Origin: Eledone cirrhosa
Lineage: Eukaryota
Direction: 5' to 3'
Length of the DNA stretch: 64,000 bases
NCBI GenBank assembly: GCA_964016885.1
Contig: OZ024740.1
Coordinates: 69,626,001-69,690,000 of the forward strand
Shown in pieces: positions 3,798-53,580 of the stretch (positions are counted from its first letter, which is position 1; each line of letters starts with the position of its first letter). Below the pieces are notes generated by a model. The model saw only the letters and a program-made list of their open reading frames with translations. It was not told the DNA's origin and did not search any database. The translations under genes were made by a program, and so were the position numbers.

Positions 3798-4503
3798 ATA
3801 TTCATTAGTTAAGCAAAGACAAGACCACAAATTTCACAAGAAAGACGTTATTTTAAGAAAGTCAACACAGTTTCAGTATATGTGAGGAATGGAGTAGCGA
3901 AACAATTGTAAACGGACATTGTATTGGCAGTATCGGTAGAGGGTCGGACGCCATGATTTGACGCATAGAGTTACGGCCCTTGCCATTCTGACTTCAAATC
4001 CCGCCGAGGTTAACTTTACCTTTCATCCTTACGGGTTCGACAAAATAAAGTACCAGTAATGCACTGTTAATTGCTGGCCTTGAGCCAAAAGTAGAAACAA
4101 TTATTATCATTCCTTACTATAATTACACTCATAATTAAACTATAATTACACTCCTTATTATTATAATCACACTTCTTCTTCTTATTATTATTATTATTAT
4201 TATTATTCCTTACATTAAATTATAATTACACTCCTTATTCCCCACATATACTGAAACTATGTTGACTTTCTTTAAATAACGTCTTCCTTGTGAAATTTGT
4301 GGTCTTGTCTTTGCTTAACTAATGAATATTTCCAGCTGTGTGCATTTAATCTCTGCATGAACCCAGCTATATAGCTGCCTTCCACTACTTATTGCATATT
4401 GAGCACATGCCTTTACGCTTTTGGCTTCTAACAAATTCACCAATCTCTCTTCTCCTCGCCTATATCCATCTCTCCCTTTAAGATTGGTTTACTCTTGAAC
4501 TGT
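3798..4503 (+). mobile_element. PLE terminal relic: inverted repeat arms 3798-3890 and ~4236-4330 plus tail, split by a SINE
   Basis: ttcattagttaagcaaagacaagaccacaaatttcacaag... is the reverse complement of ...cttgtgaaatttgtggtcttgtctttgcttaactaatgaa; the right arm carries an HHR 3' half (GAAAC tat GTT); (TA)n on both sides. Confidence 0.6.
3921..4106 (+). mobile_element. tRNA-derived SINE (family A)
   Basis: tggcagtatcggtagagggtcggacgccatg...cttcaaatcccgccgagg...ggccttgagccaaaagtagaaacaattatt. Confidence 0.85.
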
Positions 4504-5867
4504 CTATATATATATATATATATATAAATATATATATATATATGTCTCTGTGTGTGTGTGTGTGTGTCTATATATATATATATATATATACATGTATATA
4601 TATTTATATATATATATATATATATATATATATATATATATATATATATATATATATACATATATATATATATGTACACATATATATATATATATGTAAA
4701 TATACAACAAATATCCAAGGGCTTATAGCATGTAGGTGGTAGATTTCTCTCAAAGACATTTTATAGAAAACACGACTGTTGTCCAGTTTGATTATTTTCT
4801 TGAATGATTTTGTGCATTATAATAATAGTTCTATATGCTTAGTTTGAAACAGCAACGTTCAAACAGCACTGTTGAAAACCGCCTAAGATGCGGACATAGA
4901 GTATATATTTTTAATTATGTGAACACGATCATTAATTATTTATTCAATTTTAAATATTGAAGGTCAGATGAATATAGAACATTTAATAGTAGTTTCAATG
5001 GAGACAGTGGCTGTAATATGGTATAAACGTCAAATCCAAGAGGGAAATCAGAATAAAAACACATACACACATGCACGTACAAACAAACACACACGCGTGT
5101 AAACACACATGCGCACGCACACACACGCACACATACACGCAGGCGCACACACACACACACCCACACACAAACACATATATATATATATATATACACACAC
5201 ACAAATATATATATATATATTTTAAAGAATCCCCTTTCTTTAAATCCATCAACCAATTACCTCCAGCCATCCCAATCACCACTCTCGCCTACGATCAGAA
5301 AATGTATAAATACCACCATATTACATTACCAGCCGGCTTCCTGATGATTTCTCCCGTATGAAACAGTTGTAGTCCTGTAGAGGCCTTTTCTATATTAAAT
5401 ATATATATATATAGGATAGCAAAGTATTGTTTCAGGCAGGGTTTCCCAACCTGGGCGATTTCAAATATTGGGTGGGCGATGAACGAATTTTTAGGAAATG
5501 GTGGGCGATCTAAAATTTTGGTGGGCGACAACGGATTTTCGGTAATTAAGTATCTTATTGATCATATAATGGCCGGTATGCTCGGATTCGATCTTCCGTA
5601 GTCTAGACTAAGGAAGTAGTATTTAGCTGTATGACTGTAATACATGTGTTCAACTGATTCATGTCTAGCAGTTTACAACTGCCGAACACCTCACATGGAC
5701 AGCTCGCATTGGACGCGCACACATCCGCGTGCATCGGTAAACTAAAACAGGTGATGACGCAAGACCAACGGCAAAACGTGTTAACACTACTGTAGTCGCG
5801 CATCGTGCATTTCTGCCTTCGCCGATTCTGCCTATATGAATTCTTTCTTCGAATTTTTACTTCCCTG

Positions 5868-49838: not shown

Positions 49839-52459
49839 TACTAATAAAACAATAATATGGGCCAAATTGGCAAACAGTAGAACAAAATTATTTGTAGTGT
49901 TTGTTGCGGCTACCTAAACTCTGAGTTCAAATACCACTGTTAATTGTGTCCTTCCTCCGTTCGTGTTCAATATTGTTAAGGACCAGTCCAGGGCAGAGGA
50001 CTAGCGAAACTATTAGCGCATCAGACAAGAGGCCATGAGCTATTTTCTCTGGTTCTTTAAACTTTGAACCTAAAACCCGTCGAGGGTTATTTAGGAAATG
50101 GACTAAATCATTGGCCTTATTTAGCAACCCCACCCGGATAGTACGAAACCTTTACAGAGCCCCCTCTGTTGCAAGCTTTCAGACCATGTCGTCGGTAAGA
50201 AGATACGTTTACCCTTCTTTCAGAGGCCCTATAACGTCATAAGCACAGTTATTCACTTGTTGATTAAACAGAGGATAAAACAAGAACTAGACTAAATGTC
50301 TACCTTGCTTTTAACCTGAAGTTGCATTCTACTGTCTTCATATTAGTAGGGACACATAGAATAGTGCAGTTCTTGAGTTATTATATATGGGATAAAGATG
50401 GGATAACATTAACAATATATGTTATACTGTACATCAAACTATATATCTAGATTTTTAGCCATTAACGTATATATTGACAAGCATAAGTACATTGTCCTTA
50501 CATACATTATCATTCAAAAATATAAGCAAGAATCGACTGGACTGATTTCATTCCGGTCTGATATCTCACAAGTGAGTGAGAAATGTCTTTAACTTTCTAC
50601 GGAAATACAACATATAAATCAGTATTAGTACTTACTGGCTTTAAGAATCTGGACATACCAATTTGAATATAGAACATATGCTTGGTAGTGATATTCTTCA
50701 ATCAGTTGATGCTGCTTTAACTATTTGGTTCTACAGGATTTATTTGTAAATATTTAGCTAAGAGTATGTAGAGACAAGTAGGCAGCGAATTGACTGAGTC
50801 GTTAGAACTTCATTAGTATTTGTTCCAACATATAAAGCTCTTAGTTTTCCAACCTAAATATATTTATTAAACTTATGTAAATTTACCATCAGTAATATAA
50901 TTTATTGACGGCGAAGTGACAAGTTTGTTGGGGCGTCAGATTAAAAGAGCATTGGTATCCATTCTGAGACATTGCGTTCTGAGTTCAAACACTGCCATGG
51001 TCACCGTTGCATTGAATCATTCTGAGTTGATAAAAACTACTAGTCCAGAACTGGGGTCGATTTTTTTTCTCTTTATCTCTGGGAGAAATCAGCTGTGTTC
51101 TGAACTGGAGAGATCTGGGCTCCACTATGTTTAAGAAAGAAATGCCCAAGACACACTATATGGAACGACGGTAGCCCTACAGGTGTTAAGAATCCATACA
51201 TCCATACATCCGTACATGTCATAAAGACACAAACACATCCCTTTCCCTTATATATTATCTTCGAGGACAGAAAATGTGTTGGCTAGAAAGATACATATAT
51301 ATTTTGTAGTACAGCATAGCATTGAAATAAAACACTGTAAATACTCCAGTAATGTATTAAACGTATATGTGTTAGTAGTGACGGAAATAATGTGATTAAT
51401 TCTTGAAATACATTTGGTCGACCCTGTAACGTTGCTGTTAGCATCATGCGCTGGAAAAAGCGTGATGGAATAAGCAAACCTCTGTAATCAGTATCAGAAA
51501 CATGTGCAATAAACCTCGATAAAAGATATGTGTGTCAAAGGCCATCTTCTCAGATACACTAGTACATTGGCCCTATTTATTTTCATCGAGTTACATGGTG
51601 GCAAGTGAAAAACAAATGTGCATAACCCCACCCAAAAAAACCTTTCATTCCAAAGCCTCGATTTGAGATCACGCCCTAGAAACCATTTCAAAGATATTAT
51701 ATCTTAAACATACATCCATTATACCTCTTTGAAACGAGCACATGAAATTTAACAGTATGTTAGAAGATAAACACATTTGAACATTTGGTTATTGTAAAGT
51801 TGTTATTAAAAAATATAACGAAAGATAGTGTTGGCATGAACAAATCACTTACGTAAGTTGAAGAATCTGTCCATTTATAGCGTACCCTATTAATGTAATA
51901 GCAGAAGTTTAATATGTGACTATACACGTGAGGAACGCGTATCTGTGTTTAATTATTGTGTATACATATATGTATGCACAATAATTAAACACAGATACGC
52001 ACAAATATTCGTAAGTATTCTTATATATGAATGTATGTATTTAGATGCATATATATATATGTATACATACGTATGTGGCGTTTATATGTGTAACAGTTGG
52101 TGTATGTGTGCATATATATTCAAATATATATACATATATATATATATGTGTGTGTGTAAACCTATATATATATATATATATATATATATATAGGTTTACA
52201 CACACTCATATATATATATATATATATGTATATATATTTGAATATATATGCACACATACATATATATATATATATATATATATATATATATATAACGAAA
52301 AAAGTGTGGTAAAGATCCAGGTGGACCATAACGCACCAAAGTACTCAATACTTAGGCTAGTAGAGTTGGTAATAGGAAAATATTCAAGACCCCGACGGCA
52401 GAACTCGAGCCGTTTCGACGGCTATTTCTGGACAGTCCAGAAATAGCCGTCTCCTGCAA

Positions 52460-53580
52460 GCTGATTTTGCCCGTAAAATCTGTCCACTGATTCTTTCCTA
52501 AGACATTCTAACCCCATGCCAATAGTATTGGAACTGTGATCTCTCAATTCGGAGAAGTAGGGGCTCTACCTGGAGTAAATATCTGATCTGCGAGCTACGC
52601 ACTCTATCTAGTAGCATTACTCCAAAGACCCTTCGTATGAACCCTATGTCGACCGCTTGTATTTGCGATCGTATTCTTTCGGTCATTACCCAAGATCCAT
52701 CAACATAGGTAAGGGTTGGCTAGAACACCGAATTGAAGATAGCGAGTCTGGCTCTTTCGCCTACCTCCATTCTTATGATTACGGAATGCTGAAGCTGGCG
52801 CATTACTGCAGCAGCTCCTAGAATTATAGCCCTTAATTCAGCCTCCTGCCTTGCATCACTCGTGAACACGCCTCCGGGACACTTGAACTTCTCTACCTGC
52901 TTCAGTGGAACTCCATTTACATGTAGAGTGCAAAAAAAGCAACAATAGAAATTGTTCCAATTACAGATGGATCTCCTTGTTAAACATCCCTGGTAAAGTC
53001 TAATGTAAGTGTCTGGTAAAGTGATACAGTTAAGATTGTTGACTCCAAGTAGCTGATTAACTATGTAGTGTTCGCCCCGGACACAGCACAGCCGACCAAA
53101 TATTCACACAGCGGCAGGTCTTCGAGAAATTATGGGGGTATTGCTTGTTTTGTTGACCTTGAAAAGGTATATGACCGCGTTCCTCACGACATGCTGTGGA
53201 AGGTACTACTAACGGATCGTTGATCATCTCCTTACTGGCCCTTACTGTCTCTATATGAATTCCCAAGTATTTGTGTTTGGATAAATGGTGCTAAATCGAA
53301 ACCATTCAATGTGAGATTCAGACTCCACCAAGAGTGCGTACTGTAACCTCTCCTGTTCAGTACTTACATGAACGGGATTGACATGTGCAGCCGGGTTGGA
53401 AGTGTATCATGACTAGCGGGAGTAAAATCAGTCGACTGGAATTTGCAGACGACATGATGTTATTTAACTATTTAACTTGACAAAAGGTTATCTCCGACTT
53501 GCACTAGATGATAAGTTTGATGCCTAGTGCTACATAGCTGGAACGAAAATCAGTGGTGCGAAAACTGAGACGTTCGTCTA
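52460..53580. mobile_element. RTE (Expander-like) LINE with inverted 5' segment: 52460-52931 minus, ~53070-53580 plus
   Basis: Plus part has CFVDLEKVYDRVPH, PLLF, LEFADD and KISGAKTET; minus part continues LHVNGVPLKQVEKFK; both are colinear with 46310-47000. Confidence 0.8.

Follow-up and report, generated by a model that had tools for sequence, protein, structure and literature searches.

Why should one stretch of the Eledone cirrhosa genome carry a series of hammerhead ribozyme motifs that differ from one another in sequence, and what are these motifs for? The window analysed here is a whole stretch of 64,000 nucleotides (assembly GCA_964016885.1, contig OZ024740.1, positions 69,626,001 to 69,690,000 of the forward strand; all coordinates without a locus name are those of the window), which has 36% GC and is rich in (TA)n arrays and retroelement pieces. 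A sequence-only reading had claimed that more than ten hammerheads mark the ends of Penelope-like elements (PLEs) here, and we find 21 such sites. Our reading, which we hold at nearly nine chances in ten, is that they are the 3’ pseudo-long terminal repeat (pLTR) ends of about 15 PLE families, mostly of the Hydra clade, inserted in (TA)n, and that their type I hammerhead motif likely cleaves slowly and as a dimer and likely stays uncut during copying. The link between hammerheads and PLEs and the targeting of (TA)n are already published for Hydra PLEs; a family with a U4C core, long stems II and a truncation inside the ribozyme of one family remain of interest.

Hammerhead motifs exceed shuffled controls

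The check proposed for that claim was a descriptor search against dinucleotide-shuffled sequence. A strict descriptor of the type I hammerhead (canonical core plus stems I–III, both strands) matched 5 times in the window, against a mean of 0.1 per shuffle in 40 block-wise dinucleotide shuffles. Widening it to U3-A8 and U4C cores and to long stem II gave 7 matches and none in 40/40 shuffles, and the loosest form gave 10 matches against a mean of 0.2 (maximum 1, 15 shuffles). By homology to genomic copies, using as reference 310 motifs from 1.2 Mb of genomic loci (given L-numbers, such as L043) plus family alignments, we count 21 window sites in about 15 families, which we letter A to O. A complete core (canonical, U3-A8 or U4C) is present at 13 of them, while 4 are decayed and 4 are half-sites; by core type 9 are canonical, 2 are U3-A8, 2 are U4C and 8 are mutated or absent, and 9 lie on the plus strand and 12 on the minus strand.

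All seven sites first described as intact do have a canonical core (7/7), two of them (27331 and 34369) with a stem I of 2 bp that is likewise found in their genomic copies. Among the proposed variants and half-sites, those at 13161/12862, 14965–15066, 18047, 25506, 27880, 30669/31155, 47550 and 52405 stand; comparison with genomic copies shows 47550 and 52405 to be 5’-truncated half-sites and 18047, 27880 and 31155 to be core-mutated. The one at ~4250 is merely the tail of a family N insertion, the real half-site of which (GAAA, stem III and stem I’) lies at 3891–3922(+). Three sites are new: 5335–5386(+), 3577–3647(+, decayed) and 17696–17730(+, a half-site).

Core and pairing are retained across families whose stems are entirely different (34 clusters among 185 motif matches), and more than 10 families without common stem sequence show the C3-G8/U3-A8 covariation and retain a cleavable NUH. 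The first description of the sites as unrelated in sequence does not fit many of them, as four pairs are same-family copies and families A and F share stem I. Stem I measures 4–8 bp in A, B, C, D, F, H, M and O and just 2 bp in E and G, and stem III mostly needs a dimer for pairing. The word minimal does not fit many of them either, as stem II spans 13–95 nt. The published minimal hammerheads (min-HHRs) of metazoan PLEs have no or a very short helix III and a helix II of 7–8 bp with a conserved G10.1–C11.1 (PMC4209133); only E, G and an L150-type motif share these features, whereas most other families have a palindromic stem III of 3–5 bp, a long stem II or a mismatch at 10.1–11.1.

Some further candidates were considered. 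The matches at 31893(+) and 58328(-) are loose, with one mismatch and no homology to any of the 310 motifs, and we treat them as chance. Further CUGANGA sites occur at 150–240(-), 32644(+), 32372(-) and 27562(+), and downstream of the one at 230(-) come a hairpin and a GAAA-palindrome, though its position 17 is G; none of these sites is similar to any complete motif of the reference set. An Rfam scan gave no hammerhead family among the best 150 of 278 matches, TA-repeat microRNA models crowding the list.

The motifs lie in 3’ pLTRs of Penelope-like elements

The hammerheads sit in the 3’ pLTRs of PLEs, 0.25–2.5 kb downstream of the GIY-YIG endonuclease. In a test that is independent of the hammerhead, we started from endonuclease remnants in 600 kb of position-picked sequence, requiring at least 1.7 kb of room downstream (3 remnants with less were dropped) and counting by hand: 13 of 21 remnants have a same-strand hammerhead no more than 2.6 kb downstream, where chance would give 13% (p = 3e-7). 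The other 8 have no descriptor match, though one of them (L043) has a form with a 95-nt stem seen by eye. Altogether 10 of the 15 families are linked to reverse transcriptase (RT) or endonuclease coding sequence.

On diagnostic motifs or an upstream Hydra-like endonuclease we assign 9 families to the Hydra clade, and on its motifs one (G) to the Neptune/Nematis type, while five (E, I, K, L and O) have no parent open reading frame (ORF) found. Families A, B and C have intact ORFs of 775–872 aa, with RT followed by a C-terminal GIY-YIG; the same order is seen in D, which is frameshifted, and in J and M, which are in pieces or partial. Inspection of the translations by eye finds a CxCX5C linker and no CCHH in all six, and DKT and RWR/RWI wherever the N-terminus is visible, DKS-type being absent. 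Because this set fits the definition of the Hydra clade, namely an RWK-like motif, DKT, a CxCX5C linker and no CCHH (PMC8557442), we place A, B, C, D, J and M there. The likeness to the elements described in that source extends to CxxC/CxH near the end, a pLTR hammerhead with a short self-complementary stem III, (TA)n, a tail and an inverted 5’-truncated copy, and Hydra-1_Obim from Octopus bimaculoides is listed among them (PMC8557442). The differences are a hammerhead spacing of 3.3–5.3 kb here versus less than 3 kb there, the coexistence here of at least 9 Hydra families with up to tens of thousands of copies, and the CUGANGA core and short stem II of all Hydra rows in the table of that source, as opposed to U3-A8, U4C and a stem II of up to 95 nt here.

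In the window, the 3’ part of a family A element (11254–12681, -) has GIY-YIG at 12272–12679, a (TA)n end and a hammerhead at 11289–11359(-) with an 8-bp stem I, a 36-nt stem II and a stem III palindromic throughout. The frameshifted family M element (14780–17776, -) has RT at ~16137–17675, the CxCX5C linker and GIY-YIG at 15641–16065 and a U3-A8 hammerhead at 14965–15066(-), in which stem II is 74 nt long and stem III is damaged; the inverted half-site of this element is that at 17696–17730(+). Family G, of which the 3’ part (33834–34600, +) has GIY-YIG at 33834–34117 and a hammerhead at 34369–34406, is not Hydra because it has DKS, a CX4CxxC linker and CCHH; on these translated motifs it appears to be of Neptune/Nematis type, with no finer placement. 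A G-related 3’ end (27595–27997, -) has a decayed hammerhead at ~27878–27917 (U4A). These three families bear out part of the claim that four hammerheads lie downstream of recognisable GIY-YIG sequence; the fourth, family D (3’ part at 25345–27145, -, with a U3-A8 hammerhead at 25506–25552), has only an 18-aa linker piece. Comparison of 25455–25734 with L160 shows that family D has a long 3’ region, with ~2.5 kb from endonuclease to hammerhead, and this region contains an internal 121-bp direct repeat at 26479–26726.

The remaining Hydra assignments are to shorter pieces. Family C is present as a 95-bp end within a TA array (24461–24555, +), with a hammerhead at 24463–24508 and truncation at stem I. 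Family F (32791–32856, -) has a 31-nt stem II, and a Hydra-like endonuclease lies ~1.4 kb upstream in other copies; for family H one lies 1.5 kb upstream in 2 other copies, and no ORF of at least 170 aa was found for H in 10 stretches of ~7 kb. Family N is complete in L043, where its hammerhead follows a Hydra-like endonuclease and has a C4 core and a stem II of 95 nt. Among the families that have no parent ORF found, E is a minimal hammerhead at 27331–27362(+); K is an old family with copies ~75% alike, seen here as a decayed hammerhead (18009–18126, -) with core mutations at 18047; L is a half-site (47515–47575, -) with a complete form in L208 that has a 62-nt stem II; and O has a canonical core and a weak stem II at 5335–5386(+), its decayed copy at 3577–3647(+) being 78% identical to a complete copy in L111.

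Insertion into (TA)n and probable copying of uncut RNA

Most sites had been described as lying near (TA)n, and indeed 18/21 have a TA tract of at least 6 units within 200 bp, versus 25% of background positions, and 20/21 have one within 300 bp, versus 33%, although the sites are not all independent. The claim of at least 8 PLE families sharing TA targets is likewise exceeded by the roughly 15 families found. Hammerheads are described as universal in Hydra elements, nearly all of which insert in (TA)n (PMC8557442, whose supplement lists both).

Several insertions are head-to-head pairs. That of family B (12819–13412, both strands) has U4C hammerheads at 12862–12908(-) and 13161–13207(+), a 98.8% palindrome at 12819–13250 and a tail confined to the right arm. 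That of family H (47648–48254, both strands) has hammerheads at 47783–47832(-) and 48071–48118(+) and one tailed arm, and that of family N (3798–4329, +) has an inverted arm at 3798–3895, the half-site described above and a tail at 4230–4329. In the 13/13 family A and B insertions tested, and in those of B, H and M in the window, the tail is on exactly one outer end. We considered simple hairpin fold-backs and set them aside, since each arm has its own truncation point and only one of the two has the tail. For an anole PLE, two sites within the RNA are described as the start points for priming on both DNA strands, which creates an optional tail, and uncut RNA is used (PMC11167929). One tailed end per pair agrees with the prediction of that work, and the genomic pattern thus fits the anole mechanism, with two RT start sites, priming on both strands and an uncut substrate; this element, Poseidon PAc, belongs to another clade and its ORF starts within the hammerhead, and the part of the source available to us mentions no stop in stem II. 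Opposite-strand pairs 100–700 bp apart are also described for min-HHRs, together with type I topology, location in pLTRs, many heterogeneous families per genome, a palindromic 15.2–16.2 region, an extra base after A9 and the U3-A8 variant, all of which are found here (PMC4209133).

The 5’ ends of copies bear on whether cleavage shapes insertions. Of the 30 family A copies with an anchor downstream of the cut site, 27 run past the entire ribozyme and 1 starts at the cut site, which does not support the idea that cleavage defines element 5’ ends. Because only 1/30 starts there, the RNA that is copied into insertions is likely uncut, and cleavage likely does not set insertion ends. The ends at -104 to -130 from the cut site account for 11/30 copies, many of which are paired arms and not independent. 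In the family A copies of L234–L257, such ends coincide with a short palindrome; it forms the base of a stem-loop that is predicted upstream of the hammerhead.

We propose a mechanism, drawn from published work, in which the GIY-YIG nuclease of the element would cut AT-rich DNA, and the RT would start at two internal sites a short way downstream of the hammerhead and prime on either strand, leaving one tailed end. Most complementary DNAs would stop early, so that each insertion would leave a single hammerhead or a pair next to a TA tract, and repeated insertion into the same tracts would produce a pile-up. The ribozyme itself would likely serve for low-rate processing of a tandem precursor RNA. 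Cleavage as a dimer is taken from published work and would fit the self-complementary stem III of most families; in J and O, where stem III is modelled as hairpin-capable, the ribozyme may act as a monomer.

Variant cores and the case for relics

Position 4 is C in 25/25 family B loci anchored on stem II alone, and the stem III of this family varies only among self-complementary forms (three forms at 13, 5 and 5 loci, plus 2 core mutants; n = 25). The U4C change is in both repeats of intact family B elements and in a relative (L206) with different but paired stems. In run X2 (740 contigs, labelled as another organism) and in run X1, any change at position 4 stays below 10% of depth; run X6 does not extend over this position. 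C4 also occurs in four further long-stem forms, at one locus each, and in lone copies of three otherwise-U4 families (L078, L126 and L204); because these are single loci or copies, fixation of U4C is shown for family B only. The U3-A8 core, previously seen in Schistosoma PLEs, is in 15/15 loci of family D and also in M and J. Stem II regions of 31–95 nt fold with paired ends in predictions, and position 10.1–11.1 is often A-G, A-A, A-U or U-U, of which U-U is already known. In sequence, U4C, U3-A8, the mismatched 10.1–11.1 and the long stem II all look like tolerated or down-tuned variants. The same U4C change in a viroid considerably reduces activity in vitro yet supports infectivity (PMC3088659); the difference here is its fixation in a family of genomic retroelements, the stem II of which has 4,285 exact matches.

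We found no earlier report of fixation of U4C in a young family whose ORFs are intact or of a stem II of up to 95 nt, though the variants of Lünse et al. or the supplements of PMC4209133 may list such forms; U4C is not mentioned in the part of PMC4209133 available to us, and among the matches listed for CCGANGA-type (C4) cores none is on PLEs by title. Such young sister families, whose cores are canonical, U3-A8 or U4C and whose stems measure 13–95 nt, would allow cleavage rate to be compared with copy success, which bears on the open question of the purpose of PLE hammerheads. In addition, the U4C and long-stem forms would escape descriptors of the published type (one has a spacer of 7–17 nt), so that counts of PLE hammerheads in animals may be too low and some calls of no hammerhead may be mistaken.

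Several observations weigh against our reading. Single-strand fold prediction gives a complete three-way junction at few sites only, the fold z-scores are weak (-3.0 to +0.7) and rarely better than shuffles, and family H is predicted to fold into an alternative structure that pairs its core. Conservation within young families (95–99% alike) reflects descent rather than selection. Families F, H and N are tied to Hydra solely by the upstream Hydra-like endonuclease (32–57% identity), five families have no parent ORF, as described above, and E and G, judged by their 2-bp stem I, may be inactive, although a 2-bp helix I is also described for a min-HHR of D. virilis (PMC4209133).

One alternative is that the hammerheads are dead relics, or structural elements such as protein-binding sites or scaffolds for RT start sites, carried along by PLEs. 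It would account for the success of the young family B with a core change that impairs cleavage in vitro, for the short stem I of E and G, and for the success of Naiads without canonical hammerheads; moreover, in the anole PLE, mutating the ribozyme left in vitro insertion unaffected, and RNA-seq shows no reads with an end at the cut site (PMC11167929). We nevertheless consider it unlikely, as relics would not be expected to keep the core, the covariation and a cleavable NUH in more than 10 families with unrelated stems, U4C still permits viroid infectivity (PMC3088659), and the anole PLE hammerhead does cleave in vitro (PMC11167929).

Truncation of family J inside the ribozyme

The window contains a family J half-site (52314–52451, -) truncated within stem II; the complete form has a U3-A8 core, a 54-nt stem II and a 17-nt stem III region. 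With a pattern that required four bases upstream of GAAA and with extents walked ungapped against two references, 37/39 distinct family J arms stop 4–23 nt upstream of GAAA, within the 3’ arm of stem II, as do 14/14 arms in a position-picked sample. Genome-wide, 29,059 matches to the 3’-half pattern compare with 2,587 to the core-side one, an ~11-fold drop that is approximate, since the patterns are of unequal length and the second is limited to the variants seen. Family A has no comparable drop, and the window half-sites of L, N and M break 8–19 nt upstream of GAAA.

The sequence evidence suggests that the stem II of family J likely stalls reverse transcription, although a short template, or a nick in the long stem, may also explain the truncation. 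A wider and tentative proposal, which we would sooner doubt than adopt, is that ~100,000 PLE hammerheads have been tuned down rather than lost, by fixation of U4C in a family that is actively spreading and by growth of stem II to 50–95 nt, with the folded ribozyme itself acting as a roadblock to RT and cutting ~90% of family J insertions to core-less 250-bp palindromes. If this were true, the ribozyme would govern the number of complete copies that an element leaves, and the sharp truncation would be a genomic readout of RT meeting a folded ribozyme. Our literature search found no earlier report of truncation inside the stem II of a PLE hammerhead. Separately, at G000:C1:91473239–91487434 five family J core matches lie on one strand with a spacing of ~3,543 bp, likely a tandem array of full-length elements.

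Family I and retrozyme-like units

Family I (30587–31280, -) has two hammerheads 486 bp apart, each with a 55-nt stem II; there is no ORF between them, and none of at least 120 aa in the window for this family apart from microsatellite frames. The core is intact at 30669, with a mismatch in stem I, and mutated at 31155. The two-unit form of the ORF-less 486-bp unit is also in L124 and a partial one in L040, and from its sequence we consider family I retrozyme-like and likely non-autonomous. Non-LTR retrozymes are similarly ORF-less tandem units with type I hammerheads, reported at 170–400 nt (PMC7229834; 10.64898/2026.07.22.740005), in contrast to the 460–486 bp of family I, which differs also in its 55-nt stem II, and of an array ~45 kb upstream of the window (L032:2204–9987 and L033:409–453). 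This array has 16 detected hammerheads at a spacing of ~460 bp in two opposed blocks and is retrozyme-like; its motif family occurs singly at many loci.

It could be that most of the motifs are such non-autonomous tandem retrozymes and not PLE ends. The recurrence of the family I unit and the 16-copy array speak for this, as does a preprint that links retrozymes to PLE pLTRs (10.64898/2026.07.22.740005). The coding sequence linked to 10/15 families makes it very improbable as a general account, and it applies to family I only.

The window has about the usual genomic density

The sites had been taken as a local cluster. In 48 evenly spaced stretches of 10 kb (480 kb, contigs C1–C11) the widened descriptor finds 22 motifs, or one per 22 kb, with 0 in each of three shuffles, which extrapolates from 0.016% of the 3.0-Gb assembly to ~140,000 motifs; 2,000–9,000 per genome are given in PMC4209133. 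The window has 7 motifs versus 2.9 predicted per 64 kb, ~2.4-fold (Poisson p = 0.03, not adjusted for duplicate pairs or for the window having been chosen for this feature; the 7 include two mirror-image pairs). Stretches richer in TA tend to have more motifs (rho 0.32, p = 0.026, n = 48 stretches), and 120 kb of window flanks have 25 matches, 16 of them in the one tandem array. Single families are abundant, with 19,064 exact genomic matches to one 21-mer of family A, 4,285 to the stem II of family B and 29,059 to a 30-mer of family J. The cluster is therefore ordinary, at about the usual genome density and with no local concentration.

A special locus, where a read-through transcript is processed by many ribozymes, has even less to recommend it than the retrozyme account. 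The modest excess and the TA-richness of the window would favour it, but motifs occur throughout the genome, they are here on both strands and in different families, and some of the 7 matches are mirror copies. The proposed self-cleavage of read-through RNA at many sites was overstated, as a transcript sees one strand and the sole same-family pair on the same strand (30669/31155) is damaged in both members; in such RNA the head-to-head pairs are predicted to form long duplexes burying the ribozyme. Chance matching in AT-rich, repeat-rich DNA, though it may explain a few loose one-mismatch matches (31893+ and 58328-) that look random, has practically no probability for the listed sites except ~4250, given 0–0.2 matches in shuffles against 5–10 observed and thousands of genomic copies.

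Other elements in the window

A near-complete, GC-rich non-LTR element lies at 40005–45038(-), with an ORF1-like frame, an AP-endonuclease piece and an RT with zf-RVT. Four further elements, at 57452–60085(-), 54834–56720(-), 36186–38406(+) and 5796–7776(+), comprise an 877-aa RT ORF with C-terminal C2H2 fingers, two decayed elements resembling long interspersed nuclear elements and a broken transposase-like frame, the last identified from its translation by eye and having no Pfam match. A repeat of ~170–200 bp resembling a short interspersed nuclear element has seven copies in the window (3112–3265, 3920–4136, 6591–6741, 29876–30048, 45250–45451, 49615–49857 and 63337–63531), and the copy at 3920–4136, unrelated to family N, splits the family N insertion.

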